Below are positions 761 to 60,014 of a stretch of DNA of 64,000 bases, in pieces. The stretch comes from Glycera tridactyla (lineage: Eukaryota). A program made the position numbers and the translations under genes. How positions within the stretch are numbered: the first letter of the stretch is position 1; every line of letters starts with the position of its first letter. The notes under the pieces were generated by a model. The model was not told where the DNA came from and did not search any database. It worked only from the letters and a program-made list of their open reading frames with translations. The DNA is taken from the NCBI GenBank assembly GCA_965644265.1, contig OZ286465.1, positions 89,652,001 through 89,716,000 on the forward strand. The letters run 5' to 3'.

Positions 761-789
761 CTGTTATGGAACGCCATTGGGGACTTTAT

Positions 790-2480
790 TGACCATTTAG
801 GGTTCTCCCTAATTCGATTTATGGAGAACCATATTTATTTAGGGAGATCCATAAATCATTTAGGGTGTTCAATAAATGAATTAGGGTAAACCCTAAATAA
901 TTATGGAGATCACTAAATCGATTTAGGGTTCTCCATAAATCATTTATGGAGATCCCTAATTCGAAGATATAGGGAGAACCATAAATCATTTATGGTTTTT
1001 CCTGAATGAAATATGGTCTTCAATAATTCGAATTAGGGAGAACCCTAAATCGATTAAGGGATCTCCCTAGATCAATTTACGGAGTTCCCTGAATCAGGCC
1101 TGCCCATAGTGCTGCGATCTTACTTCAAATAAAGACATTTAGGGAGATCCTTAATTCAATTTAGTGATCTCCATGAATCGATTTATGGTATTCCTTAATC
1201 CATGCCAGTCTATGGTGCTGCCATCTTACTTCAAATGTAGGCATTTAGGGAGATCCCTAATTCGATTTAGTGATCTCCATAAATCGATTTATGGTTTCCC
1301 ATAATTTGATTTAGGGATCACCCTAGAAGGATTTAGGGATCTCCCTAAATCTTCCCTGAATCTGGCCAGCCCATGGTTCTGCCATCTTACTTCAAATGAG
1401 GGCATTTAGGGAGATCCCTAATTCGATTTAGTGATCTCCATAAATCGATTCATGGTATTCCATGATTCGATTTAGGGATCACCCTAAATTGATTCAGGGA
1501 TCTCCCTCAATCAATTTATGGAGTTCCCTGATTCGATTTAGTGATCTCCATAAATGGATTTATGGTTTTCCCTAATTTGAATTAGTGATCACCCTGAATC
1601 GATTTAGGGATCTCCCTAAATTAATTTATGGAGTTCCCTAAATCAGGCCAGCACATGGTGCTGCCATCTTACTTCAAATGAAGGCATTTAGGGAGATCCC
1701 TAATTTGATTTAGTGATCTCCATAAATCGATTTATGGTATTCCCTAATTCGATTTAGGGATCACCCTAAATCGATTTAGGGATCTCCCTAAATCGATTCA
1801 TGGAGTTCCCTAATTCGATTTAGTGATCTCCATGAATGGATTCATGGTTTTCCCTATTTCGAATCAGGGATCACCCTAACTCGATTTAGGGATCTCTCTG
1901 AATCAATTTATGGAGTTCCCTAAATTAGGCCAGCCCATGGTGCTGCCATCTTACTTCAAATGAAGGCATTTAGGGAGATCCCTAATTCGATTTAGTGATC
2001 TCCATGAATGGATTCATGGTTTTCCCTATTTCGAATCAGGGATCACCCTAAATCGATTTAGGGATCTCCCTGAATCAATTTATGGAGTTCCCTAAATCAG
2101 GCCAGCCCATGGTGCTGCCATCTTACTTCAAATGAAGGCATTTAGGGAGATCCCTAATTCGATTTAGTGATCTCCATAAATGGATTTATGGTTTTCCATA
2201 ATTTGAATTAATGATCACCCTAAATCGATTTAGGGATCTCCCTAAATCAATTTATGGAGTTCCCTAAATCAGGCCAGCCCCTGGTGCTGCCATCTTTCTT
2301 CACATGAAGGCATTAAGGGAGATCCCTAATTCGATTTAGTGATCTCCATAAATCGATTTATGGTATTCCATAATTCGATTTAGGGATCACCCTAAATCGA
2401 TTTAGGGATCTCCCTAAATCGATTCGTGGAGTTCCCTTATTCGATTTAGTGATCTCCATAAATCGTTTTATGGTTTTCCC
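790..2480. repeat. Subterminal satellite of ~19-20 bp palindromic units (e.g. CCCTAAATCGATTTAGGG) with a recurring GGCCAGCCCATGGTGCTGCCATCTTACTTCAAATG module
   Basis: The module recurs near 1097, 1203, 1364, 1646, 1928, 2100 and 2272. The same units occur inverted at 4134-4880. Confidence 0.9.
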
Positions 2481-2942
2481 AGGAGACAGGGAGGGAGAGA
2501 GAGAGATTCCAGAGATTGCTGTTATGACGTCATAATGAAGGAAGCTCTGTCTCGTCACAATCAGTGGGTGATACCAAGGGTACAACCAATTGTGACGTCA
2601 TGAAGCGGGAGCGGGAGACGGAGACGGAGAGGGAGACGAGGAGGGAGAGAGAGTGAGAGAGGGGGAAGGAAGAGAGGGGAGGGGAGGGAGAGAGAGAGCA
2701 TGAGTGGGAGCAAGAGCGGGAGACGGAGACGGANNNNNNNNNNNNNNNNNNNNNNNNNNNNNNNNNNNNNNNNNNNNNNNNNNNNNNNNNNNNNNNNNNN
2801 NNNNNNNNNNNNNNNNNNNNNNNNNNNNNNNNNNNNNNNNNNNNNNNNNNNNNNNNNNNNNNNNNNNNNNNNNNNNNNNNNNNNNNNNNNNNNNNNNNNN
2901 NNNNNNNNNNNNNNNNNNNTAGGTGCCATTATTTCGACGCCA

Positions 2943-2989
<47 letters not shown>

Positions 2990-3778
2990 GTAGTGTTCAT
3001 GGTGGTGATGGTGGCAGTGACGGCTGTGGTGACATTGACAATGGTGGTGGTGGTGGTGGTGGTGGTGATGCTGGTGCTGGTGATGGTGTCGGTGCCGGTG
3101 GTGCTGGTGCTGGTGCTGGTGCTGGTGGAGATGGTGGTGGTGGTGCTGGTGATCCTGGTGATGGTGCTGATGGTGATGGTGCTGATGGTGATGGTGCTGG
3201 TGGTGGTGATGGTGGTGATTGTGCCGGTGGTGTTGCTGATGCTTGTGGTGGTGCTGCTAGTGCTGGTGATTGTGNNNNNNNNNNNNNNNNNNNNNNNNNN
3301 NNNNNNNNNNNNNNNNNNNNNNNNNNNNNNNNNNNNNNNNNNNNNNNNNNNNNNNNNNNNNNNNNNNNNNNNNNNNNNNNNNNNNNNNNNNNNNNNNNNN
3401 NNNNNNNNNNTGCTGCCGGTGATGGTGCAGGTTGTGCTGCTGGTAATGCTGGTGCTGGTGGTGGTGGTGGTGGTGGTGGTGCTGCAGGTGTATGTGTCAG
3501 GTGTGAGTGTGTCAAGTGTGTGTCAGGTGTGTGTGTGTGTGTGTGTGTGTGTCAAGTGTGTGTGTGTGTGTCAGGTGTGTTTGTCAGGTATGTGTGTGTT
3601 GGGTGTGTGTCAGGTGTGTGTGTTAGGTGTGTCACACTTGGTGGTGTGACACACACACAAACCTGACACACACACACACCTGATATACACACCTGAAACA
3701 CACACCGAACACACATACCTGACACACACATTCACCTGATATACACACCTGAAACACACACCCAACACACACATGCCT

Positions 3779-3817
<39 letters not shown>

Positions 3818-4133
3818 GATATACATACCTGAAACACACACCTAACACACACCTGACACACACACCTTAACACACACAACTGACACACACACCTGACACA
3901 CGTAAACCTGACACACGTAAACCTGACACACGCATACCTAACACACACACACCTGACACACACACACACCTGCAGCACCAGCACCAGTAGCACCACCAGC
4001 AGCACCACCACCACCATCACCACCACCACCATCACCAGCAGCACCACCATCACCAGCAGCACAACCAGCACCATCATCACCACCACCACCGCCACCACCA
4101 TCACCAGCAGCACCACCAACATCATCACCAGCA
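2990..4133. repeat. Long palindrome built from (GGT)n/(GT)n and (AC)n/(ACC)n microsatellite arms
   Basis: GGT-rich then GT-rich left arm, centre GTGTGTCACAC-ttggtg-GTGTGACACAC (loop 3638-3643), then AC-rich and ACC-rich right arm. Confidence 0.8.
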
Positions 4134-4880
4134 GGAGATCCCTAATTCGAATTATCGAGATCCATGAATCGATTTATGGAGATCCCTAATTCAAATTATG
4201 GAGATCCCTAAATCGATTTAGGGTGATCCCTAATTCGAATTATGGAAAACCATAAATCGATTTATGGAGATCACTAAATCAAATTAGGGATCTCCCTAAA
4301 TGCCCTCATTTGAAGTAAGATGGCAGCACCATGGGCTGGCCTGATTTAGGGAACTCCATAAATCGATTTAGGGAGATCCCTAATTCGTTTTAGGGTGTTC
4401 GAATCATGGAAAAACATAAATCAATTCATGGAGATCACTAAATTTGGTGGACTTGCAACATGACTGAATTATGGAGTTCCATAATTCATTCATGGAACTC
4501 CCTAAATGATATATGGATATTGGCATATAGTCGTGATTTAGGGTATACCATAATTGATTTACGGTTCTCACTAAATGTCGTGGCAATCCTTGCAGTTTGA
4601 TACCGAAATCCATTATTCAATATGGGATCACCATAATTCAAGGGGGGAAATCACTAATTCGACCAGCTCATTTCTCATATCATGGTTTTCTCTAAATCGA
4701 TTTATGGTTCTCCATAATTCTGATTTAGTGAAAAACCATAATTCGAATTAGGGAGATCACTAAATACTCGAATAATTAGGGTTCTCCATAATTCGATTCA
4801 GGGAATACCCTAAATGATTCAGGGATCTCCCTCAATAAATAAGGTTCTCCATAAATCGAATTAGGGAGATCCCTAAATGG
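4134..4880. repeat. Inverted copy of the subterminal satellite (right arm)
   Basis: CATTTGAAGTAAGATGGCAGCACCATGGGCTGGCC at about 4307-4341 is the reverse complement of the left-arm module. Confidence 0.9.
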
Positions 4881-5529
4881 TGAATAAAGTCCCCAATGGC
4901 GTTCCATAGTCTGTGGTGTTTCAATGCGTGTCATCGGCGCTCCCCTCTGACTTCACACACGATTGTACGTATATGTGTTCCTTTGTGATTGAAACTCGTC
5001 CACTTTTTCAAAGGACGAACTGGCAGGTAATTCTTGTCTTGTCTTGAGTTGTACGGTAATCGGTGAAGGTAATAATAAAATCCAATTCCATTCGAAATGT
5101 ATCATGAGTATGGGAGTATACAACAGCTACATCACACTCGGTGTTCGCGCATGTATGTGTCTCACACGACCGCAATTCCAACGCACCAAATCTGAATCAA
5201 TCCGCCATCAATCTTATCGGCGGCGGCTTCTCTCATCCCAGACAATACATGCGAAGAGTAACTCGAGCATGAACTTTTGTCGACAACCTAGAACCGTGAG
5301 ACTATATGCAATCATTGAGCCAGTATCCATGGCGGGAATAATTTGATCTTCGCGTGCGTGGTGGTGTCGATATGGTGTGGGTTTTTATTACATAGAAATG
5401 AATACAATACAATATTCATCTATTTTATATTGCCATCGGAGTTTGTATGAGCAAAGCTAGAATGAATTAGTCCCGTTCCATCATCCGTATTTTGTCTCAA
5501 AGCTAGTCAAGTTTGGTTCAGTACCAAGT

Positions 5530-8026: not shown

Positions 8027-8544
8027 TATTTCATATATTCATTTCTCAATATGACTGAAAATTGTATTAAGTCGAAATAATATTCAGATTCGAGACGAGA
8101 ATCGAGTATAACCGAGAATAAGATATTTCAGGATTAATCATATTGGGGTGACAAGTACCACCCAACCCATTAGCCAATAAGCACAATAAGGGGAGGGATT
8201 AGTCCGGATATATAAGAGCGTGCAAGGCGGCGGCACAGCGAGGTTGCATCGGTGTGCCCCAGTCTTACCACACAAAAGGAGTGGGCTCAAAAGAGTCCTT
8301 CTCTGGCTTCCTCCATCATGCGAAGGGTGTTGCATGTGTTTCGATATAGACTTTCGTTGAACTCGTGATTTTGATAATTTCGTCATTTCATCGTGGGTCA
8401 GTTGCCATAGTCCGGAAGATTCCTACCTCTCACAATCCCCGTGGTCACAGGATATTCCGTTGAAGGTTATTACAGTGTGAGTTGTTTGTTTGAATGGATG
8501 ATGGTAGAAATTCAGTGGTCCGCTGAGGGCCACGATACCAAATA
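8027..8544 (+). repeat. 5' LTR
   Basis: Identical to 20497-21014 except at 8329, 8330, 8363 and 8491. Ends TATTT...AAATA. Confidence 0.95.
8174..8215 (+). promoter_or_regulatory. LTR U3 promoter: CCAAT (8174-8178) and TATATAA (8209-8215)
   Basis: Canonical motifs at a typical spacing, present in both LTRs. Confidence 0.65.
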
Positions 8545-8545
8545 T

Positions 8546-8563
8546 TGGTGGAGAAGCGTCGGG
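8546..8563 (+). promoter_or_regulatory. Primer-binding site, probably tRNA-Ala
   Basis: TGGTGGAGAAGCG lies 1 nt after the LTR. TGGTGGAGAA is complementary to the ...UUCUCCACCA 3' end of metazoan tRNA-Ala(AGC) as recalled from vertebrate sequence; the host tRNA was not checked. Confidence 0.7.
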
Positions 8564-8650
8564 TAAATTTCTACCTTGGACACATATATATATATATATA
8601 TAACAATAACAGTTTCATTTGTTGAGTGGAATACCTTGTTGGAAACCACG

Positions 8651-9577
8651 ATGAGTGACAGTGAGCACAGTGCGCGGGACGTGGTTTACGAAAACCCGGA
8701 ATATATGAGTCATGGTGCTTTGAGTGTGACAGACAACGTAGAATCACACGAAGACACTCTTCATGAGGCGGAGAGTGACAATTCGAACAGCGCGATGTCG
8801 GAGGCTGTTAGTTCGAACAGATGTGGAACTAATGATTGGTATACTGAAGACTCATATGATGAGATATTACTTCGTACAGAAAAGGTGTTAGCAGATTCGG
8901 CTGCAAAACCGGATACAGTACCAACGGCACGTGTGGACAGACTGAGAACATTGGATGGAGTGAATCGCGAGACCGCAAATTCGGAGAGAATAAGTACGCC
9001 GCTATCTCGTGGTCGGCATGACATCAGACCGATGACTTTGGATGATAAATTCTTGCCGCGAGTGGGCTTTCCTGGAAGAAAACATGAACTCGATGGTGAA
9101 TGTCATGAATATAGTGGCAGACATCATGGAGATCCATTTACGGATAATGAATTGCGCCCACCACGCTTGGATAGGGACTCATCATATTGCTTTGGAGATC
9201 CATTTCCAATTGTGACTTTGGACAATATACCGGAACATCCACATCCGGTACCTATACGGGATAGAGTTTACTCCCCACCACACAGGCACAGTGAGATGGA
9301 GGAAACAACGCCATCGTATTCGGAAGACGAGTTGGCAGCTTATTCATCGCTAGAATTGTCTACACCATCTACACCGGAAACCCCACCGCCACCATATGCA
9401 GAAACGGAACAGACACCGGAAACATCGTCAACAGAGTCTGAAGAAGGAACAGGTAACCAATCATTGTTTGAAACAGACTGGTCAAAATTTCTTATGAACG
9501 ATTGCCGACTCAGAAAGACTCTCGAAAACCGTTTGATAAAGTTGTCGGCTCTCACAGAAATCCAACCAGAACATTAA
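8651..9577 (+). CDS. ORF0 / Gag N-terminal part: acidic, disordered, with PPPPY motif
   Basis: ATG at 8651 in good context (ACCACGATGA), open to TAA at 9575-9577. Rich in D/E/S/T/P. PPPPY at 9383-9397. Overlaps the gag frame (-1) over 9472-9577. Confidence 0.7.
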   Translation: MSDSEHSARDVVYENPEYMSHGALSVTDNVESHEDTLHEAESDNSNSAMSEAVSSNRCGTNDWYTEDSYDEILLRTEKVLADSAAKPDTVPTARVDRLRTLDGVNRETANSERISTPLSRGRHDIRPMTLDDKFLPRVGFPGRKHELDGECHEYSGRHHGDPFTDNELRPPRLDRDSSYCFGDPFPIVTLDNIPEHPHPVPIRDRVYSPPHRHSEMEETTPSYSEDELAAYSSLELSTPSTPETPPPPYAETEQTPETSSTESEEGTGNQSLFETDWSKFLMNDCRLRKTLENRLIKLSALTEIQPEH

Positions 9578-11193
9578 AACCTCAGAAGCATGAAGTTTTC
9601 AGACCACTGCATGGTACAGGTGCAAAAGGAGTGAGTCAGAATTTGTATGAATGGATGAAACCGGAACATGAGTGGGATGATAGTGAGACTGGTTCATCAG
9701 ATATGTCAGATGAGGTGGATACTTCAGTTGTGATAGAGAAATGTGGAAGTATCTGGGATATGACATGCTGGAATATGAGAAAAATGAGTGAAGATATAAC
9801 TGAGGGAGTGCATATGATCCATGTGACAGGGGAGCCTACAATACCAATTCCAAATTTTATGCCTGACGATGCGGGGGCGGCTGCGAAGCATAGGGTAAAT
9901 GTTAAACTCCCAAAATTTAAACGGACGATGAACCCTACAGAGTGGATGACATTATATGAGCGATATGCTCAATTGTATGGGTTGTCAGATCGGGAGAAAC
10001 TAGATAATTTTGTATTTCACCTTTCTCCAGAGTTGTGGGGATGGTATTCAGGGGAAACAATCACTCAGGCGACTCGCTGGACCGATTTTCAGACAGCTTT
10101 CCTTGAAGAGTTTTGTGTGCCGAATTGTAACGAGTACTCATATTTGGCCAACTTGTATAATTTGAAGCAGGGAAGTCGGTCTTGTAAAGTATGGGGAGAC
10201 CAAGTCATAGCAGCGGTGCGATTATTACATCGCATGCGACAGGGAGATGATGTCGATGACACGGTGTTTCGGGAGATGAAATCGATTATTTTGGCCGGAG
10301 CAAATCCAACAACCAGACAGCAATTGCTTGTAAATGATCCGAAAACCTATACTGATTCAAAGAAAGCACTGATTTTGGTTTCGGGTTTGGAGAGCGGAGC
10401 CGAACAGAGCAACTCTCTCAGCATGGAGACCTTGAAACAGGAGATGCAAAAACTACTTCCTGACATTCTTACTCCAATAGTAAGACAATGTGGTCCTTCC
10501 GGGGGAATTAGTGAATCTATTTCTGGAATTCAGGGACAGGGAGGTAAACCCAAAACAAAGAAATCCACCAAGGTAAATGCAATACAACCTGAATCCACAG
10601 GGGGTCAATTTCAAGGTCAGTTACATGGGCAGGACGTTTCAGAAAATGATAGAGGGGTCCAGTGTTATGCATGTCATGGCTACGGCCACTATAGATCTGA
10701 ATGCCCTAACACAGTTGGTCAGGGAAACCGTCAGGGTAGACGAGGAAGTCGGGCAAATTCAGGTCGGGGTCGTGGAAATTTTAGAGGCAGATCGCGAAAC
10801 AATCAGCGGGATTTGCCTGTATGCCAAGTGTGTAACAGAATGGGACACACAGCGGGAACATGTTTTGTAGTAGCACAGACATATCTAAGAAGGCAGGGGC
10901 CTACAGGGGGAAGCCAATATCATGCGGCTATAGCAGAGGCTATGCAAAATTCAATGGATGAAAATTCGGGATTTTCCAGGGGAGCTCACCGAGGCGCACG
11001 AGGCAGGGGAGCAGAGGGTAGATCCTGGGTCGCGAACCCGGTTTTGTGGGTAACGATTCAATTTACAGACCCCAACCTAACTATGAGGAACATTACGAAG
11101 ACAACTGACTCCATTCCCAGGGGTTTCGGAATCGAGGGGCTGAAAAGGGCTGTGAGTTACAGAAACAGGGGTTCTCCCATGATGAATTTGTGA
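9502..11193 (+). CDS. gag: Gag (capsid plus nucleocapsid with two CCHC zinc knuckles)
   Basis: Capsid-like LPKFKRTMNPTEWMTLYE...ELWGWY. CYACHGYGHYRSEC (10663-10704) and CQVCNRMGHTAGTC (10822-10863) flank an RG-rich linker. Confidence 0.92.
   Translation: MPTQKDSRKPFDKVVGSHRNPTRTLKPQKHEVFRPLHGTGAKGVSQNLYEWMKPEHEWDDSETGSSDMSDEVDTSVVIEKCGSIWDMTCWNMRKMSEDITEGVHMIHVTGEPTIPIPNFMPDDAGAAAKHRVNVKLPKFKRTMNPTEWMTLYERYAQLYGLSDREKLDNFVFHLSPELWGWYSGETITQATRWTDFQTAFLEEFCVPNCNEYSYLANLYNLKQGSRSCKVWGDQVIAAVRLLHRMRQGDDVDDTVFREMKSIILAGANPTTRQQLLVNDPKTYTDSKKALILVSGLESGAEQSNSLSMETLKQEMQKLLPDILTPIVRQCGPSGGISESISGIQGQGGKPKTKKSTKVNAIQPESTGGQFQGQLHGQDVSENDRGVQCYACHGYGHYRSECPNTVGQGNRQGRRGSRANSGRGRGNFRGRSRNNQRDLPVCQVCNRMGHTAGTCFVVAQTYLRRQGPTGGSQYHAAIAEAMQNSMDENSGFSRGAHRGARGRGAEGRSWVANPVLWVTIQFTDPNLTMRNITKTTDSIPRGFGIEGLKRAVSYRNRGSPMMNL
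11121..11127 (+). promoter_or_regulatory. Candidate -1 gag-pol frameshift heptamer G GGT TTC
   Basis: X XXY YYZ pattern in the gag frame. The pol frame is open from 11109, and -1 slippage enters it. Confidence 0.6.
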
Positions 11194-13589
11194 AAGGTGA
11201 AAGTGGAAAGGTTAGAATGGAAGACGATATGTTTGTGTATGGAGTAAATGCCATGATATCGGTTGAGTCAGCTGACGGAGAAGTGACCGAAAATCTGGGT
11301 CAACTAAACACGATTCCTGTATATATATATGATGTTTTTCACCACGCCATGATTGATACGGGTGCTGGGGCAAATTGTCTCCGGAAAACTGTTTATGATT
11401 CTATTGATATGAAATGTGTTATGAATAAGAAGGATGTAAAAATTTTGAAGGATGCTCAAGGAAATGTCATTAAGGTGTTTGGATCGGTTAAAATTCCAGT
11501 GAAAATTGGGGGAATTGACCTTGAAATTCTTTTCTTTGTAGTGGAAACTATCCCATTTCCGGTCATACTGGGACTTCCTTTCTTGATAGAACAGGGGGCA
11601 GTTATTGACTATAAAGACAATCAGTTAAATTTGCCTACATCCTCAATCTCAGTAATTTTGGAACCCGTCGGAAATTTGCCTGTGACGTTGGAAGCAGCGG
11701 GTGATTGTGTGTTAAAACCGCATGCTATAGAACGAGTGAAGTGTGTGATTGCTGATTCGGGCGGGTTAAAACAGGAACTCAGCCCAGATCAAGTTTTGGA
11801 TGTGTCACAATTTTCAATTATGGGGAACCACGAAGATTTGATTTCATTGCCCGTTTTGTCAATACAACAACCAGATGGCACTTTCGAACTCATGGTGGCA
11901 AACACAGCTAATCATGAGGTTTCTCTTTCTGCACGAGAAATGACAGCCAAATGTAGAAAGAAGACAGTTCAGGTTGGGTTATGCCCTTTAAAACAGCCAG
12001 AATCCTTATGGATTGGACCCGAAGCACCCCGGGGAATTCAAGCAACAACTGAACAGGCAGACGTGAATTCTATCCAGGTCTTATGGCCTAAAATTCCGTT
12101 TGCTAATCCATTTGCAATAGCCGAGGAGAATGCCCATAGTAGGACTTTAGCTACTCAATCTGAAGTAGACATAAGAAATCAAACTCGTCAAGAGGTTTTT
12201 AAACCAATCAATTGGCATGATCTTGTTAAACTGGAACCCGAGGCTGAAATGTTCCGCACGAGACTGATTGAGATTGTAGAAGAACAGAGACCCGCATTTG
12301 CAATGGACCTTTCGGAATTGGCCGTTATTCATGACGTTGTACATCGCATTGAGTTAAAAGCAGACGCTACAGTAGTGAATCAAAGGGCTTATAAAATGCC
12401 ACCCGAACATGAAATGGAGCTAGAGAAACAAATAGGGAAACTAGTCGACGCTGGAATCCTAGTTCCCTCGCAATCTATGTGGGGCGTTCCTGCTTTTATA
12501 GTGTATCGGTACGATTCGCAGGGTAAACCCTTCCGTCCCAGATTGGTCGTGGATCTAAAACGATTAAATTCTATGATAGTTCCAGTGAATGCACCTATCC
12601 CTACCATAAATGATATAATCGACACGATCGCCGCGGGTAAGAATCGTGTGTTTTCCGTGGTTGATTTAGCATCGGCGTTTTATGCAGTACAGTTGTCTGA
12701 AGATAGTCAGGACATATGTTCCATTAACACCCGAAATGCTACATATACTTTCACAAAACTGGTGATGGGTTTGAATAATTCTCCCATTATATTTAATTAT
12801 TTAGTACAAAGATGCCTTTCTACACTAGATCCGAGGTATGTAGTCAGCTATATTGATGATATTCTCATCATGACTCCCACATATGAACAACACTTGGAAA
12901 TATTGCGGCAGGTGCTTTGGCGACTTCGTCAGGTAGGCCTCAGAATATCTCCATCCAAAGCAGAATTTTTAAAATCGTCTGTTAAATTCCTAGGCTATAC
13001 TTTCAATCGGCAGGGAGTACAGACAGACATGACTAAAATAGAAGCACTTGTTAAGATTCCCGCACCGCAAAATGTGAAGGAAGTGAGACAATTGATGGGG
13101 AGTTTTGGCTACTTCCGGCGATTTGTGAAAGACTTTGCCAAACTAGCTGCGCCGATTAACGAACTTTTGAAGAAAGACGAACCATTTGTTTGGACCGAGA
13201 AACGTCAACAAGCGTTGGATGATATTCGAAGGGGATTGCTCAAAAACGCCATTCTTTATTCCCCAGATCCGAACAAGCCATTTTATATTCACGTAGATGC
13301 AAGTGAACGCGCGATCGGCGCCGTGGTATCGCAGAAGGACATAAATGAGGTGACCAGACCTTGCGCTTTTATATCAAAGACACTGAATACCGCACAACAA
13401 AAGTATCATTCAAATGAAAAGGAAGTGTTAGCCTTAGTTGAAACATTAAAAAGCAGTGAAAATTACATAGGACCACAAACCCTAATCGAAGTTCAATCTG
13501 ATAATTTAACCACAGTGTATTTAGATAGTTTGACTGCTCGAACAGGGCGATTATATAGATACAAATGTATCTTAACCGATTTAATCTAA
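11190..13589 (+). CDS. pol: Pol part 1: aspartic protease, dUTPase-like spacer, reverse transcriptase, RNase H
   Basis: MIDTGAGAN (DTG 11355-11363), RLVVDLKRLN, VVDLASAF, MGLNNSP, YIDD (12849-12860), KFLGY, HVDASERAIGAV, EKEVLAL, SDN. Confidence 0.96.
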   Translation: MKGESGKVRMEDDMFVYGVNAMISVESADGEVTENLGQLNTIPVYIYDVFHHAMIDTGAGANCLRKTVYDSIDMKCVMNKKDVKILKDAQGNVIKVFGSVKIPVKIGGIDLEILFFVVETIPFPVILGLPFLIEQGAVIDYKDNQLNLPTSSISVILEPVGNLPVTLEAAGDCVLKPHAIERVKCVIADSGGLKQELSPDQVLDVSQFSIMGNHEDLISLPVLSIQQPDGTFELMVANTANHEVSLSAREMTAKCRKKTVQVGLCPLKQPESLWIGPEAPRGIQATTEQADVNSIQVLWPKIPFANPFAIAEENAHSRTLATQSEVDIRNQTRQEVFKPINWHDLVKLEPEAEMFRTRLIEIVEEQRPAFAMDLSELAVIHDVVHRIELKADATVVNQRAYKMPPEHEMELEKQIGKLVDAGILVPSQSMWGVPAFIVYRYDSQGKPFRPRLVVDLKRLNSMIVPVNAPIPTINDIIDTIAAGKNRVFSVVDLASAFYAVQLSEDSQDICSINTRNATYTFTKLVMGLNNSPIIFNYLVQRCLSTLDPRYVVSYIDDILIMTPTYEQHLEILRQVLWRLRQVGLRISPSKAEFLKSSVKFLGYTFNRQGVQTDMTKIEALVKIPAPQNVKEVRQLMGSFGYFRRFVKDFAKLAAPINELLKKDEPFVWTEKRQQALDDIRRGLLKNAILYSPDPNKPFYIHVDASERAIGAVVSQKDINEVTRPCAFISKTLNTAQQKYHSNEKEVLALVETLKSSENYIGPQTLIEVQSDNLTTVYLDSLTARTGRLYRYKCILTDLI

Positions 13590-15451
13590 AGTTGGCACAT
13601 AAACCAGGACGATTAAATCGAGTGGCAGATATGTTGTCGCGACTGTCTTATGATGGACAGCCAGAAACGTCCGAAGACGAAGAGCCCGATACATACGCAT
13701 TGATTAATGCGCCTGAATGGTTGAACGACAAATGTTCGACATCAGATTTCGATACGGTCGATGACTTAGCGCCGATTATTGAGTCAGATGACGAAAGTGA
13801 AGTTGAATCCCGCGAGAGACAATTTGATATGTTTGATGTATTTGAATCGCACGGAACCGACTGTGATAAACCACCTAGAAAAGACCCTGATTTGTCTCTT
13901 GAAAGCGATGAGGAAAACGTGGATTTAGAAGTAGGTAAAGAGCTTACAACAGAGCATGATCGGTTGGGATTTCTAACTCAAGATTCACAAAAGGTTTTGG
14001 ACACCTTAGACGAGTTGTTGGGTTTTGAAGATAGTTTTGACACTGAGCAACTCGGTGATATAAATGAACAAGAGTGTATCGATATTGCTCAAGAATTACT
14101 AAGAAACGCTCGTTTACTTGCTGCTGAACAGTCGGCAGATGCGGATTTTGGAGATATATATCAGTATAAGAAACATCGCGTTTTACCGGAAGCGGATACA
14201 TCGAGCCGTAGAGTATTGGCGGAAGAAGACAAGTTTTATTTGAATGAACTAGGCGTTCTTTATCGTAAATTTCACCCGCAACCAGGCGAGCGGTGTTATC
14301 ATCAGTTGATATTACCGATACGGCATCGAGCTCGAGTTACTCGATTGTTTCATCACGGATTACATGGTTCTCATAGAGGCTTTCATTCACTACTGTTTAT
14401 AGTGAGACAACGCTTCTTTTGGCGTAATATGTATGACGAGCTATTGCAGTATGTACTATTGTGTGAACAATGTTCAGCGGCAAAGCGAGACTATTCTCAT
14501 ATCAAGACGCCGCTACATATTCGACCTCCAGCTCGAATATTTGAAGTCCTGCATTTGGATGTGCTAAAAGTAGCTCCCACACCGTCAGGAGATCTCAAAT
14601 TGTTAGTAATTATAGATCGTTTCTCTAAGCATTTTGAGCTAGTTTGTGTTAAAAATGAGAAAGCCGACACCTTAGCATCAGCACTATTGAAAACCTGGAT
14701 CTATCGATTTGGTCCACCACGATTAATTGTGCTAGATAATGCGGCAGCTCATAGATCAGAGTTATTTCAGGCTATGGTGAGGCAGTTTGGAATTACACTT
14801 CGATTTATCACCAGCTGGCATCCGGCATCAAATGCGCAGGTTGAACGAGTACATTCGACAATCTTAACGGCCTTGCGAGCCTTAATGCTCGAATTTCCAA
14901 ACAGAACCTGGACTTCTTTTCTGGATCATATTAGATGGACTTGTGATATAACAACACACACTCATGGCTTCACTCCTTATGAGCTAATGTACGGTCTTGA
15001 GCCATATTTGACAGGGGATTTGAGTCATGAACCTCCTCTTATGCAAGATTTACCAGTACAACAGGCCTTAGGATATGTATGGCCAGATTTAATGGCCATG
15101 AGACAAGCCGCCGCAAGGAAAATGAGACTTGAGTCGGGGTATATGAAAGCCAGATATGATCAAAAACATAATGCTCGCTATAAAGGATATCAAGTTGGGG
15201 ATCGGGTATGGTTAAAGAAAATTAACCCAGACATACCGAATACTTATAAAATTGCTCCCAAATATATGGGACCATTCACTATTGTGGCTTCATCTCGACC
15301 GGGCTTTCATCAATTAAGACTTCTCAATCATACATTGAACAAATGTTTTCACGAAGAACGTTTGAAGCCCTATGTGCCTAAGTGCCAGGAGCAAATGCAA
15401 CATAGCGAATTTCGGAGGTCTCCGAAATTCCTGGCACTAATCAAAATGTAG
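13565..15451 (+). CDS. pol: Pol part 2: RNase H C-terminus, acidic spacer, integrase
   Basis: HKPGRLNRVADMLSRL; HHCC (HHGLHGSHRG...CEQC); D,D,E core (LHLDV, VLDNAAAH, NAQVERVH); GPY/F region (YQVGDRV...PKYMGPF). Joins part 1 if one base is restored at 13563-13565. Confidence 0.95.
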   Translation: MYLNRFNLKLAHKPGRLNRVADMLSRLSYDGQPETSEDEEPDTYALINAPEWLNDKCSTSDFDTVDDLAPIIESDDESEVESRERQFDMFDVFESHGTDCDKPPRKDPDLSLESDEENVDLEVGKELTTEHDRLGFLTQDSQKVLDTLDELLGFEDSFDTEQLGDINEQECIDIAQELLRNARLLAAEQSADADFGDIYQYKKHRVLPEADTSSRRVLAEEDKFYLNELGVLYRKFHPQPGERCYHQLILPIRHRARVTRLFHHGLHGSHRGFHSLLFIVRQRFFWRNMYDELLQYVLLCEQCSAAKRDYSHIKTPLHIRPPARIFEVLHLDVLKVAPTPSGDLKLLVIIDRFSKHFELVCVKNEKADTLASALLKTWIYRFGPPRLIVLDNAAAHRSELFQAMVRQFGITLRFITSWHPASNAQVERVHSTILTALRALMLEFPNRTWTSFLDHIRWTCDITTHTHGFTPYELMYGLEPYLTGDLSHEPPLMQDLPVQQALGYVWPDLMAMRQAAARKMRLESGYMKARYDQKHNARYKGYQVGDRVWLKKINPDIPNTYKIAPKYMGPFTIVASSRPGFHQLRLLNHTLNKCFHEERLKPYVPKCQEQMQHSEFRRSPKFLALIKM

Positions 15452-15453
15452 AT

Positions 15454-15996
15454 TTGACTGACACATTACGGGACACAGTAGAAAATAGAAATGTTTCAAT
15501 ACCGCCAAATGCTGGACTAAGGCAGGTTGGACAACGGCATGTTCCTTTATCGCCAGAAAGGGAAACTAATGTGAGGCCGGCGTTACGCCTTCGCGCCTTA
15601 CAAAAACAATCAGAATCAGATAGGTTGACCCAAAAGGATGATTTCGACAGAGATGGCACCCGTCCAAAACAGTCCTTCTCGGGTGGTACTAATAATAATA
15701 ATAATAATACTAACAAGAAACAACCAATTAGAATCCAAACTACATTTCCTCAAGCTAAGGAAATTACAATGAAACCTCCACGAATTGACACGATCAAGCA
15801 TGAGTTTCAGGAGTTGATTAAGATTTCTGCAAAACGTGTTGATTCCAACGGCTGTTATTTCTTATGTCATTGGAAGGGAAGAAAGCCCATCTGGATCAAA
15901 AAGGGAGAGATACCTTTAGATATATTAAAAGCCTTTGAAAGCGATGTGAGGGACAGACGTGTCACTCGCAGGGTTTTCTATTCGCCTGATAGTTGA
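15454..15996 (+). CDS. Integrase C-terminal extension ending in a chromodomain-like fold
   Basis: Frame open from 15406. ELIKISAKRVDSNGCYFLCHWKGRKPIWIKKGEIPLDILKAF (about 15811-15936) follows the chromo pattern xxI...R....yLvkWkG...tW....l...l..f. Confidence 0.65.
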   Translation: MTDTLRDTVENRNVSIPPNAGLRQVGQRHVPLSPERETNVRPALRLRALQKQSESDRLTQKDDFDRDGTRPKQSFSGGTNNNNNNTNKKQPIRIQTTFPQAKEITMKPPRIDTIKHEFQELIKISAKRVDSNGCYFLCHWKGRKPIWIKKGEIPLDILKAFESDVRDRRVTRRVFYSPDS

Positions 15997-16230
15997 ATGT
16001 GAGTGTGAATGACTCAATTCTGACGGGGAATAAGGTGTCTTAGAAAATAGTATATTCAGCCAGGTATTGAAGAAAGTGTCGCATGGTAACCGAAATATTG
16101 TCTGAAATGTTAAGAGTTAGGGCCCAACTCGAGGCATTTAAGGTACCTTGCTAGATGACTGCGGATGAGGATCCTCAGCTGGGGACAACTTGTTACAGTT
16201 GCCAGTAGTTTTAATTTTTGTATGTTGCAG

Positions 16231-18791
16231 TCAGGGTGACATCGAGAGTAACCCGACCTGGTATACGTGGAGGGACCACGTGGGTGTTTATTTGTACACT
16301 GCTCGTAACCTGCTTGATGGCAGAAGCGGTGATGGCCAGAGACGAGCTGAATTTAGATGGGATACCAGTAAATGTAGACCCAATCGAGAGATTGAATTTC
16401 AGGGCACTCTTCTTGCCATTGACGGGTGATTTCACACCAGCGACAGCCAATTACAAATTGCTGTTATTGTTGCCAGTGCCAAAATTTGACAAAGTTCAGG
16501 TGAAAATGTCAGATACGTTGATCAGATCCGAAAATAAATCACGTGGTTTTGTATGTGCAGGATTGCTCAATTTGGACCGGGGCACCCCTAGAGACGTGGA
16601 ATTGGGGGAGATATCCTGTAACTCTCTGATGTTAAGTTTGAGACAGATTCAGATGACCCAAGGAAATGTCACATCAGATCTTCTATCCGAAATGAATAAA
16701 CAGCTGCATCTGTTGAAAGGCAGCATTCCTGGTTTTGACTACAAAACACGCAAAGCACGTGAAACCTCTTCTTCTCAAGTACCTGATTGTGATCGTCGGG
16801 AAACGTTGGTTGATCGGTTGACTTGTTGGCATGGAGTCCTGTCGGCTGGCAATCTCGAGAACTTCCAATCTCGAAGCAAAAGACAAGTTCCGGAAAAAGA
16901 TAACACTTTGAATTTACAGTCTTGGCTGGACAAGATTCTTAGGGTGTCGAAACAAGCTAAAAGAGTGGAAAATTTGATAACGTATTCAAAATTACATCAA
17001 CTTATGGTGACCAGTCCCACCAGAAGAAAAAGAGCACTTTTCGGCTTTGTAGGCAAGATTTCAAGAGCATTATTTGGGACTGCAACCTCTGATGACATTC
17101 GGGAGTTAAAGCTAGCTATACATGATTTGAATTTTGGCTCTATGTCCACAGCAGCTCATTTGAAAGCTTTTCAACGATCGACCATAGCATTCTCGAAGGC
17201 CACTAATGATCAATTGCAACAGATACAACACACCATGCATGATATACAGAATACATTTGACCATTTGATTCAATATAACATGATGGAGATCTCGAAGGCA
17301 ATGTACGCCAACGTAGCTCTTTTGTCTATGATGATACAGGACATACAATTGGTAGGTCGAGAAATGGCCTCTTTTATGGATGGTTTGCGCGCATTGTTGA
17401 AGGGGGAGTTGTCACCTACCTTGATTGATGAGTATACATTGTATGATGCCTTGTCTGACCTTGCTGATGTGGTTGCACGAAATCATTCAACCTTTAGATT
17501 GGTTGAAACGGACCCTGTATATTATTATAAACGTGCTCGTGTCAAGTATGAGTGGATAAACGACACATTGGTGATATATTTGAATGTACCGTTGACGTCA
17601 ACTGTTACGCGTTTCAGACTGTATAAGATGACAACTTTCAGAGTGCCAGTGGCACAAAATGAATCCATTACTACTCGTCCAATTGTGGAACGAACTATAT
17701 TTGGTTTGTCACATGATCATACACGATTCCTTGAGATGTTGGAGTCTGACTTTGTGTCTTGTACACAGACACCTACAGTTCGATGTCAGCAGGCCATGGT
17801 AATACATGATGCATACCATCCAACATGTGCGATGAGTTTATTTTCAGGCGACAGGGGTGATATAGATAAATATTGCACATTTCGTCTGGAAATGGCGGTA
17901 CCATATTTGAACATTCAAACCTCGTCCCCAGGACGTTTAATAGTCTCCAATGCACAGTCGATCTCGGTCACATGCCCGGGGCGTTCTCCTGTGGTCAGGC
18001 AGGGTTGCATGTTTTGTGTAATTAATCAGCCCTGCAATTGCCAAGTTACTGGGTTAGATGAAGATTCAAGAACAGTAACAGTAACACCAATTTTAAAGGG
18101 TTGTATTTTGGATTCATGGAAATACGAAATGCAGTATCCTGTCAATATTCCTGTATTGTCCAGACTTCTGAATCCTGATCAGTTTGAAAAACTGGCTGTC
18201 AATAGATATGTCTCTAATTGGCAGAAAGTTCCGCAAGTATCGTTCAATATTGAACCTCTATCTCAGCAGCTCAGTTTGAGTGAAAGAGTTGACTTCGGAA
18301 TGGACCTAGATAGAGCAATCAAGCAGATGCAGGAAGATGAACGTTTGACGGTCATTCCACCTAGAGTGAAATTTCAAAATTCTCATTCATGGGTGATTCG
18401 TTTGTGTATCGGGATAACGGTTGTTGTTCTCGTAGTTGTTGTGGTTTTAGGAGTTATTTTGGCGATCTGGTGTAAGAAGACTAACTTTCGTCTGCTGCGC
18501 AAAATTTGTGATTGCAGACGTATTTTCAGTAAAAGAACAACAGCCACCGCACAAACAACGGCAGGAATCGAATTGTTGAATCTGGCAACCACCGCAATGG
18601 AAGAAATGCGGCCTGTCCGAAAGAGACCGAGTTCACCTATATTGGGCACACATTCTGATAATTATGAACCGATAATAACTACTGAACCTGTGAGCGTGTC
18701 AAGCAGATCTGTATTGCCACCTCCTACACCAAAGCCTAGTATCCGAACCAATCCAAAGGTAATGCGTATTGGTCAGGATAAACCTTCCTAA
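16231..18791 (+). CDS. env: Env, class I F-type fusion glycoprotein (main exon)
   Basis: Signal-peptide hydrophobic core WVFICTLLVTCL; furin site RRKR followed by fusion peptide ALFGFVGKISRALFGTATSDD; heptad repeats; Cys-rich region; N-glycosylation sequons NVT, NHS, NDT, NES; TM at about 18390-18473; ~105 aa tail. Confidence 0.92.
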
Positions 18792-20485
18792 GAAGGCTAC
18801 ATTATGTTCATGATATTACATTGACGTGCTCCAACCTTGTCCCACCTAGATACCTTTTCCGCTGTTTTGTATGCCACCCTTATGTTTTGGGACTAGCGAT
18901 AACGCAAAGTGGTCCTTACGAAGGGACGATTTAGCAATACAATGGCGATGTAACGGTTTATTTATTTTTCGTTTTCATAGTGGTTCTCCGCTGCTGGAGA
19001 TCGATTCTTGCAATTAGCGACCACAAACTTTACGCCTGCAAGAGTCGACTCTGATGGCCAGAAAATCAAATAGAGGGACTTGTGGAAGGTACGTTGACGC
19101 GTTGCAAGAGTCAGGTGTGGTAGACCTGACTGCCACACATGAATCAGGCAGCTCTTGCCAATCTTCCATATTGATCCCGCCCAGTTGTTTAGGTTGGGGA
19201 AGTATATTATTAAAGGTTTTGGACGCACGTAAACTGGATTGCTAATACATTTGTCAACTTTTTATGTTTTGTATATATATATTTAGTCGTTGTGTTTCGT
19301 GTTGTGCTGCATTATTCTGAGTGTCGGGCATGACGCGGAAGGTGAGAAGGAGTGAGGGCATTTTATTTGTTAAAATGTCATGGAATGTGAACTGAAAGTA
19401 TGGTGTGAGAGGAAACTTGTCCCTTTCGTGTCCTGTCTGTGCTCTCGAATATCTTATAACGCAGAAAAGGGAAAACATTGTTGGTTTAATTTGTTTCTTG
19501 GGTTTCTTCATTTATGGACACGACATTTTCGTGTGCGTAATAAGCAGCACATGTCATCACCACCGATAAATATGTCTTCGCGTGACCGCGCCTATGTAAT
19601 TGTTTAACCGATATGTAGTTGACATTGACAACATGTCTGTAAACCTAGACGTATCAACACCTTTTTCTAAGGCTACATGGCGCCAAACTCCTTGATTGAT
19701 GACATGGAAATGTTATTTCATGTCGCACAATGTTATCGGGAGGAAATCATGAGACATTCTTGGTCGAACACCATGTCATGATAGGGGGATTTTGGTGATA
19801 ATTGTAAAAATTCTTTGTTTTCTCTTGAAAGTTCATATTACGGGTAGTTTATTTGATTCGTATTGGGTTGTATAATCACTTGTGTTATTCAAAGTGGTTA
19901 AGCATTACGTAGCTAATCATGTGCAGCATGCCTTAGAACGATGAGGGGTGATGGACAAGATGACTGGACAAGTCCATCGTTCCTATATGGCGATAAGCAT
20001 TGTTTGGTTCATACTGAACTTTTCGGAATAAGAACGTATAAAGAAGTTCTTGCATATGTGCTATGATGCGTTGCTTGCTTGCTGGTATTGATCCTTCAAT
20101 GGAATACTGACTAATCATTTTTATGTCTTGCTTTTCAGACAGTTTGTAATAATAAAATTGCGGAAATCGTTCCTGTTGACCGTACCCTCCCTTCTCCTGT
20201 GATTCCGACTCTGTTTGATGCCGCTCCGTCCAGGTTGGCCCAAGGGTGGTCCAATCGGGAATGTGGGGGAGACATGGAGTGGAGCCGGATCACGAGCCGG
20301 ATCAGTAGACTGTCGGTACTGTGGGGCAGCACATGATGAAATACACCAAAAAAAAAAAAAAAAAAAAAAAAAATTTTTTTCATACATTTTATTTTATTTT
20401 ATTTAGTATTACTATTTTTAATTTTATTGTATCTTAATTGAAAAATCAAAATGCATTGATTGTTTTTGGAGGACCAAAAAATCTC

Positions 20486-20496
20486 GGGAAGGGGCG
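20486..20496 (+). promoter_or_regulatory. Polypurine tract
   Basis: GGGAAGGGGCG immediately before the 3' LTR. Confidence 0.8.
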
Positions 20497-21014
20497 TATT
20501 TCATATATTCATTTCTCAATATGACTGAAAATTGTATTAAGTCGAAATAATATTCAGATTCGAGACGAGAATCGAGTATAACCGAGAATAAGATATTTCA
20601 GGATTAATCATATTGGGGTGACAAGTACCACCCAACCCATTAGCCAATAAGCACAATAAGGGGAGGGATTAGTCCGGATATATAAGAGCGTGCAAGGCGG
20701 CGGCACAGCGAGGTTGCATCGGTGTGCCCCAGTCTTACCACACAAAAGGAGTGGGCTCAAAAGAGTCCTTCTCTGGCTTCCTCCATCATGCGAAGGGTAC
20801 TGCATGTGTTTCGATATAGACTTTCGTTGAACACGTGATTTTGATAATTTCGTCATTTCATCGTGGGTCAGTTGCCATAGTCCGGAAGATTCCTACCTCT
20901 CACAATCCCCGTGGTCACAGGATATTCCGTTGAAGGTTATTACAGTGTGAGTTGTTTGTTCGAATGGATGATGGTAGAAATTCAGTGGTCCGCTGAGGGC
21001 CACGATACCAAATA
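20497..21014 (+). repeat. 3' LTR
   Basis: 514 of 518 positions identical to the 5' LTR by manual comparison. Confidence 0.95.
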
Positions 21015-55477: not shown

Positions 55478-56401
55478 TATGTCATCCTGCCGATACAACA
55501 AGGTTGAATTATATCTAAATTAAATTATATCTCAGTTGAATTATATCTCAATTTAATATAGAAATTATATATCTGTCCCAATTTCCCTCTCCATCCCACT
55601 CTCTCTGGTACAATGGCAGAGAAGGGGTATACTTCACTGTGGGCATTATCAAATATTCGTAATATAAACTAAGCTAATCAGGAAATATGGCCAGCGGCTG
55701 TACAAGTTTAATGAGGTAGACTCGTGCCCGAATAGCTCCCCTTCTCTTTATGTCTCTCTTTGCGCGGTTAATGCCACCATTCACATCATGTTTTCACGAC
55801 ATCTTCCAAAGCAATGACAATACCAGCGACAACAGCAGAGGAACAAATGAATCCCATTGACATCAACGTCATGAATTAGCCAGTGTAATGACGTCACGAT
55901 GATTTAAAAATGCATGCCCAAGTTGTGTATATATCAAGATCGGGCAGTTAAGTTAAGTATATTCATAGACAAACAAGAAATCTTTCTTCAGAATGCTTCC
56001 GAGCACAGCAATGTTGATAGTGATTACAATTGAAACGAATCGCCATCACTTGAATGTAGGGGTGAATGTGGTGGTATATAGACTGGTACTTGGATTGTTT
56101 TCCGTTCCATGATCACCAACTGAGCAATATTGTAAAACCTCCCTCTGGGTCCCCAACAGAAGGTGGAAATTTGTCAAAATCACAGACACTCAAGTTGTCA
56201 TTTCTGGTATCAGGAATTTTGACGACAGAGTAAGTAACCCAGTGAACATATCGGAATGATTCACATGAAATCCATAATTCAGATATGTTTGGCGACTATG
56301 GTCACCAGGTCCTCAACGTGAAGTTGACATTCATGGAATTCATAGAGGCCCATGTGTCGTTCTGACTGTATAGAGGCTGGTATCCTTTACGAGATAACCT
56401 A

Positions 56402-58647
56402 ATTGCTTCATAGTGAGATCCTCTGGTAGATCCTTTAATCTAGATACCCCAGATTGCTTCATAGTGAGATCCTCTGGTAGATCCTTCAATCTAGATACCG
56501 GAGATTGCTTCATAGTGAGATCCTCTGGTAGATCCTTCAATCTAGATACCGGAGATTGCTTCATTGTGAGATCCTCTGGTAGATCCTTCAATCTAGATAC
56601 CGGACATTGCTTCATGGTGAGATCCTCTGGTAGATCCTTTGATCTAGATACCGGACATTGCTTCATGGTGAGATCCTCTGGTAGATCCTTCAATCTAGAT
56701 ACCGGACATTGCTTCATGGTGAGATCTTCTGGTAGATCCTTCAATCTAGATACCGGACATTGCTTCATGGTGAGATCTTCTGGTAGATCCTTCAATCTAG
56801 ATACCGGACATTGCTTCATAGTGAGATCCTCTGGTGGATCCTACAATCTAGATACTGGACATTGCTTCGGAGTGAGATCCTCTGGTAGATCCTTCAATCT
56901 AGATACTGGAGATTGCTTCATAGTGAGATCCTCTGGTAGATCCTTCAATCTAGATACCGGAGATTGCTTCGAAGTGAGATCCTCTGGTAGATCCTTCAAT
57001 CTAGATACCAGAGATTGCTTCATAGTGAGATCCTCTGGTAGATCCTTCAATCTAGATACCAGACATTGCTTCATGGTGAGATCCTCTGGTAGATCCTTCA
57101 ATCTAGATACCGGAGATTGATTCATAGTGAGATCCTCTGGTAGATCCTTCAATCTAGATACCGGAGATTGCTTCATGGTGAGATCCTCTGGTAGATCCTT
57201 CAATCTAGATACCGGAGATTGCTTCATGGTGAGATCCTCTGGTAGATCCTTCAATCTAGATACCGGACATTGCTTCATGGTGAGATCCTCTGGTAGATCC
57301 TTCAATCTAGATACCGGACATTGCTTCATGGTGAGATCCTCTGGTAGATCCTTCAATCCAGATACCGGACATTGCTGCATGGTGAGATCCTCTGGTAGAT
57401 CCTTCAATCCAGATACCGGAGATTGCTTTATGGTGAGGTCCTCTGGTAGATCCTTCAATCTAGATACCGGAGATTGCTTCAAAGTGAGATCCTCTGGTAG
57501 ATCCTTCAATCTAGATACCGGACATTGCTTCATAGTGAGATCCTCTGGTAGATCCTTCAATCTAGATACCGGACATTGCTTCATGGTGAGATCCTCTGGT
57601 AGATCCTTCAATCTAGATACCGGACATTGCTTCATGGTGAGATCCTCTGGTAGATCCTTCAATCCAGATACCGGACATTGCTGCATGGTGAGATCCTCTG
57701 GTAGATCCTTCAATCCAGATACCGGAGATTGCTTTATGGTGAGGTCCTCTGGTAGATCCTTCAATCTAGATACCGGAGATTGCTTCAAAGTGAGATCCTC
57801 TGGTAGATCCTTCAATCTAGATACCGGACATTGCTTCATAGTGAGATCCTCTGGTAGATCCTTCAATCTAGATACCGGAGATTGCTTCATAGTGAGATCT
57901 TCTGGTAGATCCTTCAATCTAGATACCGGACATTGCTTCATGGTGAGATCCTCTGGTAGATCCTTCAATCTAGATACCGGACATTGCTTCATGGTGAGAT
58001 CCTCTGGTAGATCCTTCAATCTAGATACCGGAGATTGCTTCATAGTGAAATCCTCTGGTAGATCCTTCAATCTAGATACCGGAGATTGCTTCGAAGTGAG
58101 ATCCTCTGGTAGATCCTTCAATCTAGATACCGGAGATTGCTTCATAGTGAGGTCCTCTGGTAGATCCTTCAATCTAGATACCGGACATTGCTTCATGGTG
58201 AGATCCTCTGGTAGATCCTTCAATCTAGATACCGGACATTGCTTCATGGTGAGATCTTCTGGTAGATCCTTCAATCTAGATACCGGAGGTTGCTTCATGG
58301 TGAGATCCTCTGGTAGATCCTTCAATCTAGATACCGGACATTGCTTCATGGTGAGATCCTCTGGAAGATCCTTCAATCCAGATACCCTACATTGCTTCAT
58401 GGTGAGATCCTCTGGTAGATCCTTCAATCCAGATACCGGAGATTGCTTCATGGTGAGGTCCTCTGGTAGATCCTTCAATCTAGATACCGGAGATTGCTTC
58501 GAAGTGAGATCCTCTGGTAGATCCTTCAATCTAGATACCGGACATTGCTTCATAGTGAAATCCTCTGGTAGATCCTTCAATCTAGATACCGGAGATTGCT
58601 TCATAGTGAAATCCTCTGGTAGATCCTTCAATCTAGATACCGGAGAT
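56402..58647. repeat. 51-bp minisatellite, ~44 copies
   Basis: Unit GAGATCCTCTGGTAGATCCTTCAATCTAGATACCGGACATTGCTTCATGGT. Confidence 0.97.
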
Positions 58648-60014
58648 GTTTTTGCCGAATATACAGGAGAAACTACATGGGCTTACCCTCACTACAGTCA
58701 TTTACTCAGCCTAGAATACAGATCAAACTACGTGGACTGCCTATAGACAATCACACCTAGGTGGAGTGAAGTTGTGATGTACTGCAGTTTATCCAGCCAC
58801 CAAAACGGCTAACCTATCTATATTCGTACATCTGATCTCCGATTCAACGAATGAATGAGAATGGATTTCAGAGCCTTGGAATAGTAGACATATGTTGGGC
58901 TTCTGCGTGTATTCTGATAGAAAGGGACAGGACAGCACTTAACTAAGTTAACCCCCTCAGCCGAGTGCATTAGTCCGATAAAAGTCCAGCTTGATCTAAT
59001 AATGTCCATTGCCCGCCGGATACTCCACCAGACCATTTAATTGGCTCTTTGACACCCAGAAGAATGAAAGTTTGGCCTGCTAATATGATGATTGCCGAAC
59101 AAGTGTTAGTACTCTGTCCATCTGCTCCTCTTTACTATCCATTCACAAGTGGGTATAGCATCGATGTGTCATTTAGCCCTTCTAGCCATTCTTCAACTTT
59201 AATTCCAAACACACGATATCTCTTTTCCAATGTTCTTGTTGCTATGTGAATCATTTTCTCTCATCGACAAACCTAATGGAGACGGATCAAAAAGAAAATG
59301 GAGTGTTTCTTTTATTTCACTAAATGAGCCATGCAATTGAAGATTGAAACAAAAATTTTGGCTGCAGAAATTATTATCAAATTTTCATCAGGTGTACTGA
59401 TAATACTGTCAAAATAAACGCATCAACGCATCATTACATTGCCTCCAGCAACAAGAAATATGTCAACAAGACAGAGGTCCAGATTGCCCGAGTTTATTCT
59501 CTGTTGGTGAAACCACAGTAATCCAGAATACTGGGGAATGTGAATCCCATCCGCGAAGAAATATTTCTCGATGAAAATTAGTGTAAAGACAGGTATGAGT
59601 AAATCAGCATAGATGGAACTTCTGGATAATGAATAGTGGTATTATTGAGAACAATAAAGCAGAAAAACTGAAACAGAAGTAACCACTTCCTACATCGAAA
59701 ATTCTTTCATTCACACTGGGATTGCTCGTTTAGAGCGATTGTCTATTATTGTTTGTACTGGATGAATTAAAAAATCAGTATCATATGCAGACAAAAAGTA
59801 GCCAATTGTTTCGAGGGGAGTCTATTATTCTATGACCTTGTGGAGAGAGTGCGGTTGAATACAGAGAGAGCGACACTTCAGTTTCGGCAGCACCATGTGC
59901 TGGTATTGATCATGTATTTTCTCTTTAGGATCAGCCTCCATACATCTGAGTATCCAGATGGAATTAAGAGTTGAAAATGGACATTGCCTTGGATCTGTAA
60001 TCACAGCAAGATTG

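Follow-up and report, generated by a model that had tools for sequence, protein, structure and literature searches.

The retrotransposon in this 64,000-nucleotide stretch of Glycera tridactyla DNA (the window) raises two questions: whether the acidic open reading frame ahead of its gag encodes a protein of its own or the detached front of Gag, and what the PPPPY motif within that frame would do. The frame (8651-9577, here 'ORF0') starts with ATG, has a high content of D, E, S and P (8.4, 11.4, 11.0 and 8.8%, respectively) and has no Pfam match. The sequence-only reading that drew attention to it gave its length as 309 residues; the frame itself stands, with its 309 codons comprising 308 residues and a stop. 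Its account of the motif context, TPETPPPPYAE with PPPPY at 9383-9397, agrees with the sequence.

An env-carrying Ty3/gypsy element and its damaged copy

ORF0 lies within an LTR-flanked Ty3/gypsy element of ~13 kb, with genes in the order gag-pol-env and an F-type env, for which the following features were identified:

8027..8544, + strand: 5' LTR, 518 nt, ends TATTT...AAATA, compared with the 3' LTR
8546..8554, + strand: tRNA-Ala-like primer-binding site, TGGTGGAGA, from the sequence
8651..9490 (end approximate), + strand: N-terminal acidic part of Gag, predicted disordered (pLDDT), the genuinely coding portion of ORF0; reading on into the capsid frame in sister copies, dN/dS ~0.3
8855..8902, + strand: conserved predicted helix, residues 69-84 (AlphaFold2)
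9152..9196, + strand: motif RPPxxDxDSPxxFG, common to family B; 9/15 identical, E 0.012, flanks unalignable
9383..9397, + strand: PPPPY (PPxY), residues 245-249, candidate WW-domain ligand or late domain, from sequence and conservation
9480..9500, + strand: private frame break, a single-base loss, not in 29/29 sister loci
9500..9577, + strand: off-frame tail of ORF0, the gag frame being the selected one (pN/pS)
9895..10404 (limits approximate), + strand: capsid domain, Arc/Ty3 type, a folded helical region (Foldseek)
10660..10863, + strand: nucleocapsid with two CCHC zinc knuckles (domain search)
11015..11035, + strand: second private frame break; 25/27 covering sisters share the other state and two have a larger deletion
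11106..11108, + strand: TGA ending gag in sisters, with pol next in the same frame, a readthrough candidate (sister comparison)
11109..15996, + strand: pol, with protease, RT, RNase H, integrase, SH3-like and chromodomain-like end (Pfam); broken near 13565 and 15375
16215..18791, + strand: F-type env, open in the window copy, 858 codons, Baculo_F E 2e-13
20480..21014, + strand: polypurine tract and 3' LTR (LTR 20497-21014), from LTR comparison

The LTRs, tRNA primer-binding site and gene order are those of an env-carrying Ty3/gypsy element, an 'errantivirus' as PMC13524379 uses the term operationally. Because such elements with an F-type env occur widely among animals (Chary and Hayashi, PMC13524379, in the text available), the element type is already known. 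The two LTRs (8027-8544 and 20497-21014) differ at 4 of 518 nt. Their termini, at 8027 and 21014, read TATTT...AAATA, not TG...CA, and the TA-rich LTR flanks of the window copy show no clear duplication of a target site.

Besides the family of the window copy (A), a capsid search identified family B, which accounts for 122 of the 150 matches listed (72-73% identity), and a search with an outside homologue identified families C, D and E. The near-identical family B capsid matches, at least 122 across many large contigs, point to a very recent burst. The first eight nucleotides of the primer-binding site are identical in families B-E, and the site agrees with Ala-type tRNA ends in supplement 1 of PMC13524379, where, in the part available, 25 of 1,512 elements are typed Ala, 23 of them with an F-type env.

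Pfam matches to pol follow the order protease-RT-RNase H-integrase, with a Ty3/gypsy-type RT that scored 170 bits against the Ty3-G Gag-Pol chain in the PDB, versus 147-153 for p80/Gag-Pol retroviral chains; in the Atlas, an RT homologue gave only generic RT clusters. Pfam gave one RT_RNaseH match and no second RNase H. The chromodomain-like end of pol (15800-15996, Pfam E 0.025) is visibly similar in family B and in six outside pols, and was not seen in family C. In the RT tree, the families (A-E, with E contributing no pol) form a single clade (support 98/91), with control gypsy loci in another; named retroviral rows were not among the sequences, and three control loci with short matches (L096, L099 and L102) were left out. 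This clade and the six closest outside pols share a long, fully supported stem.

Env comprises an N-terminal hydrophobic stretch, a furin site followed by a fusion-peptide-like stretch, and a C-terminal transmembrane segment, the furin site and transmembrane segment being present in families A-D. Baculo_F scored above cut-off in families A, C and D, and the family B env is 39% identical to that of A. Neither env nor a long pol frame was found in the two family E copies examined, and a word-based protein search with env returned no relatives at E 1e-10.

Four frame breaks are private to the window copy, near 9490, 11020, 13565 and 15375. Assembly error fits some of these: the three single-base losses each fall at a run of three, and short gag frames also occur in 29 of the 122 near-identical family B matches listed, the other 93 having a gag frame of at least 800 codons. 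Real mutational decay also fits, given the 8-nt extra near 15375, the 7 private substitutions across 2,388 gag columns, and the LTR mismatches. If expressed at all, the window copy is predicted to yield only a truncated Gag fragment without capsid. Elsewhere in the window, we also identified a tandem array at 56300-58700, in which a 51-nt unit is repeated more than 40 times and both strands have long open frames, and nested inverted repeats at 765-4908 (130-270 nt, 72-91% complementarity, repetitive core) that are perhaps a foldback element.

The upstream frame as the front of Gag

ORF0 overlaps the next frame (9472-11193, -1 frame) by 106 nt, and the absence of an in-phase slippery heptamer, noted earlier from the sequence, holds: the overlap contains a single XXXYYYZ word, whose first letter (9485) opens an ORF0 codon, so that it is out of slippery phase. 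A DNA search of the genome (2.04 Gb) returned 47 matches at 30 loci, the window counted among them, and in all 29 sister loci the frame continues unbroken through the site near 9490. Similarly, a contig from public run X1 covering 8618-9602 has no frame break there, with 21 other letters differing. Downstream of the break, pN/pS for the final 25 ORF0 codons is 2.05 in their own frame versus 0.12 in the gag frame (12 copies pooled). Gag also occupies a single frame in families B-E, and in 6/6 of the closest outside homologues a long N-terminal arm is in frame with the capsid. ORF0 is therefore the N-terminal third of Gag, cut off by a break private to the window copy, as the sequence-only reading had suggested in proposing a 1-bp deletion. 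Its estimate of an ~847-residue Gag was too long, because the private break near 11020 lengthens the gag frame of the window copy; the natural sister Gag has 819 residues.

The predicted purifying selection was also found, with dN/dS across 8651-9481 of 0.22-0.42 against 29 copies (L007 onward); values against the five closest copies (0.14-1.0) come from sequences too similar to inform, and capsid dN/dS is ~0.1 or lower. The alternative offered at the outset, a separate accessory protein, or one joined to gag by programmed -1 frameshifting, accounts for the closed, overlapping frame of the window copy, but its probability is negligible: the 0/29 sisters with such an arrangement and the tail unselected in its own frame rule it out, and the missing in-phase slippery site and the three further private breaks also count against it. 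ORF0 as a separate gene is an artefact, produced by damage to or mis-assembly of a single copy, and is of little importance.

The intact Gag comprises ~800-975 residues: a long acidic disordered arm (380-540 residues), a capsid and two zinc knuckles. In an AlphaFold2 model of a sister Gag, based on an alignment only 12 rows deep, pLDDT is below 50 nearly throughout residues 1-412, with one helix at 69-84. Amino-acid identity varies along the arm, from 44 to 91% in blocks of 15 codons, with peaks at the helix, at 9191-9235 and in the stretch from 9326 up to and including the PPxY; among distant copies it reaches 90% at 8831-8875. Two islands, 8855-8902 (the helix) and 9152-9235 (RPPxxDxDSPxxFG), equal the PPxY zone in conservation and are candidates for the missing membrane or partner contact.

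For the capsid model, the best Foldseek rows were dArc1, dArc2, Arc and PNMA2 (E 0.002-0.04, none below 0.001), and the Pfam Retrotrans_gag domain scored above cut-off in families D and E. A word-based protein search with the whole Gag gave no matches. Neither Gly2 nor a folded matrix domain was found in any of families A-E, and a basic N-terminus is present in families C-E, not in A or B. In place of the N-terminal, usually myristoylated matrix typical of Retroviridae, the arm is predicted to be disordered, and the earlier placement of PPxY 'between matrix and capsid' holds only for the capsid side, no matrix domain having been found.

At the gag-pol junction, 30 of the 31 copies that cover the site have TGA (11106-11108), in each case with C as the next base. 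Families B, C and D also have an in-frame TGA followed by pol, and TGA is present in family E. No stop codon occurs in the 36 codons separating the TGA from the first Met of pol, and pN is below pS there in 11/11 copies tested. From this sequence pattern, UGA readthrough is the likely mode of pol expression. RNA structure downstream of the UGA did not exceed that of shuffles at six junctions and three lengths (z -1.6 to +1.6). Splicing around the UGA is a minor alternative: in family A, a branch-point-like word, a short run of pyrimidines and CAG lie immediately past the stop, but the pyrimidine run is absent in families B-E. The apparent -1 overlap of gag and pol in the window copy (GGGTTTC at 11121) was rejected as an artefact of the second private break.

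Readthrough between gag and pol is known in gamma- and epsilonretroviruses (PMC13517186, available text). It is not new to Ty3/gypsy either, since the fission-yeast elements Tj1, Tcry1 and Tosmo1-3 likewise have an in-frame TGA, with C as the next base, separating gag from pol; unlike the present elements, these are described with Gag, PR, RT and IN, the accessible text mentioning neither env nor a late domain (10.1101/2022.12.06.519325). Just before the UGA, the Gag C-terminus reads NPYYQ in family C and DNPFLQ in families D and E. EH domains take NPF as a ligand motif, and this terminus is a possible second link to the endocytic machinery.

Recurrence of PPxY in the Gag arm

Of the 34 other family A copies, 30 have a strict PPxY, the exceptions being two LPPY, one RPPY and one 6-nt deletion. 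Against the most distant copies, dN/dS in the surrounding zone (9341-9481) is 0.10-0.25, versus 0.27-0.37 upstream. Families A and B are 53% identical over capsid-nucleocapsid and have only two short motifs in common upstream, one of them TPPPPY. PPxY was also found in every Gag frame listed for families C, D and E, with two in tandem in D and E. In all five families it lies 134-189 residues upstream of the capsid, within a part of Gag predicted to be exposed and disordered. The conservation anticipated for the motif thus extends to 5/5 related families whose N-termini no longer align. Among six close outside homologues from a search of 1.84 billion proteins, two have PPxY in the arm; the other four do not, and one of these has a C-terminal PSAP.

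A single PPxY in the region of the window ORF is within chance, arising in 8% of residue shuffles (1-18% per arm). It is the recurrence of the motif across families that is beyond chance. PPxY occurs in 7 of 11 lineages, versus 0.86 expected from residue shuffles (P 2e-6) and 1.65 from 3-residue block shuffles (P 2e-4), values that overstate independence since the lineages are related, A-E being one RT clade. A stricter count of families A, C and the six outside proteins gives 4/8 (P 0.002-0.009), and the outside proteins alone 2/6 (P 0.06-0.10). Among 40,000 three-residue patterns PPxY ranks first; it sits among S/T-P sites, and STP is found in 8 of 11 arms.

The control set consisted of 20 other gypsy loci from this genome (L084-L103) with no match to the F-type env. 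PPxY occurs upstream of the zinc knuckle in none of them and at the C-terminus in one (1.9 expected anywhere); two of the 20 first frames are broken, some loci are near-copies, and several of the Gags have 700-870 residues. Because families A-E form one RT clade and the controls another, the association of motif with env amounts to a single phylogenetic contrast. Past pol, these 20 loci have an extra ORF of ~240-590 codons, or in some cases two, with no F-type env match and a transmembrane-strength segment in only one locus.

Taken together, these results establish that PPxY is conserved in the Gag arms of one F-env Ty3/gypsy clade. Motifs of other types have been considered in related Gags, with YPxL discussed for yeast Ty3. 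For gypsy Gag, a YxxL-type motif has been proposed (PMC3383448, available sections). PPxY in a Ty3/gypsy Gag was not found in the literature searched, where most subscription papers fell outside coverage, and the accessible main text of PMC13524379 mentions neither PPxY, late domain, ESCRT, readthrough nor matrix.

The 'ancient errantiviruses' of that study, as far as its available text describes them, resemble the present elements in their LTR-gag-pol-env organization, Ty3/gypsy pol, F-type env, many recent copies, tRNA-Ala-type primer-binding site and chromodomain-like pol end. The Drosophila errantiviruses gypsy, ZAM and Idefix likewise have an F-type env and a Gag that is not myristoylated, but the 380-540-residue disordered arm, the PPxY, and gag and pol in one frame set the present elements apart, as do their two CCHC knuckles, errantiviral nucleocapsid having no CCHC (PMC3383448, available sections).

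A putative late domain and competing readings

Given that PPxY is kept in five related families, sequence comparison suggests that these elements likely borrow host budding machinery. We favour, at a probability of about 0.55, the reading that PPxY is a ligand for NEDD4-family WW domains that brings ESCRT for scission into an Env-bearing membrane. Ribosomes would occasionally pass the UGA to produce Gag-Pol, and PPxY would bind the WW domains of a NEDD4-family ubiquitin ligase. Ubiquitylation would in turn recruit ESCRT, particles would bud at the plasma membrane or into multivesicular bodies, and the budded particles would take up Env and enter other cells. That the motif binds WW domains at all, the first alternative below included, appears probable.

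In favour of a late domain, PPxY is present where F-type env is present (families A-D) and absent before the capsid in 20/20 loci without it. Against it, the link between motif and env rests on one clade, the family E copies analysed yielded no env, and four of six outside homologues have no PPxY in the arm. A late domain would also need a membrane anchor; Gly2 and a folded matrix are absent in all families, and a basic N-terminus in A and B. In MLV and RSV, the PPxY late domain is located upstream of the capsid. The PPxY-NEDD4-ESCRT logic is described for both (PMC519032, available text), and MLV further resembles the present elements in having gag and pol in frame across one stop (PMC519032 and PMC13517186, available text). 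Unlike MLV, the element has neither matrix domain nor Gly2, uses UGA rather than UAG with no stable RNA structure found downstream, matches Ty3 best in its RT, and has an F-type env and a capsid whose model is nearer Arc/PNMA2 than retroviral CA. An endosomal route, as suggested for ZAM (PMC3383448, available sections), would by analogy fit as well as budding at the plasma membrane.

Alternatively, PPxY might be a true WW ligand whose role lies in turnover of Gag, in endosomal sorting or with a different WW partner, and not in scission. This is a credible though rather unlikely reading, consistent with the missing matrix and myristoylation signal, and with conservation that indicates selection but not the pathway. 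Phospho-primed PY motifs are found in cellular NEDD4L substrates, e.g. in the Smad2/3 linker, and the S/T-P surroundings of PPxY, with STP in most arms, are of this kind. However, such a ligand would not account for PPxY tracking F-type env, nor for a position before the capsid that matches the late domains of MLV and RSV.

Finally, PPxY might be a by-product of proline-rich disorder, inherited once by one clade and binding no WW domain. The per-arm chance frequencies, the single clade formed by A-E, and the four outside homologues that manage without the motif are compatible with this, but we regard it as improbable: PPxY persists where its flanks no longer align, is doubled in families D and E, outranks all other short patterns, and lies in a zone of lower dN/dS than the sequence upstream.

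More tentatively, and at somewhat less than even odds, a deep-branching invertebrate Ty3/gypsy clade may have independently reached a design like that of gammaretroviruses, combining PPxY, readthrough and a class I fusogen with an acidic arm replacing matrix. That the motif has outlasted the alignability of ~400 surrounding residues points to a specific class of host partner. If the late-domain reading is true, retrotransposon capsids would bud via NEDD4/ESCRT with no need of a matrix domain, and infectious, envelope-carrying retrotransposons could be surveyed with late domains as markers.
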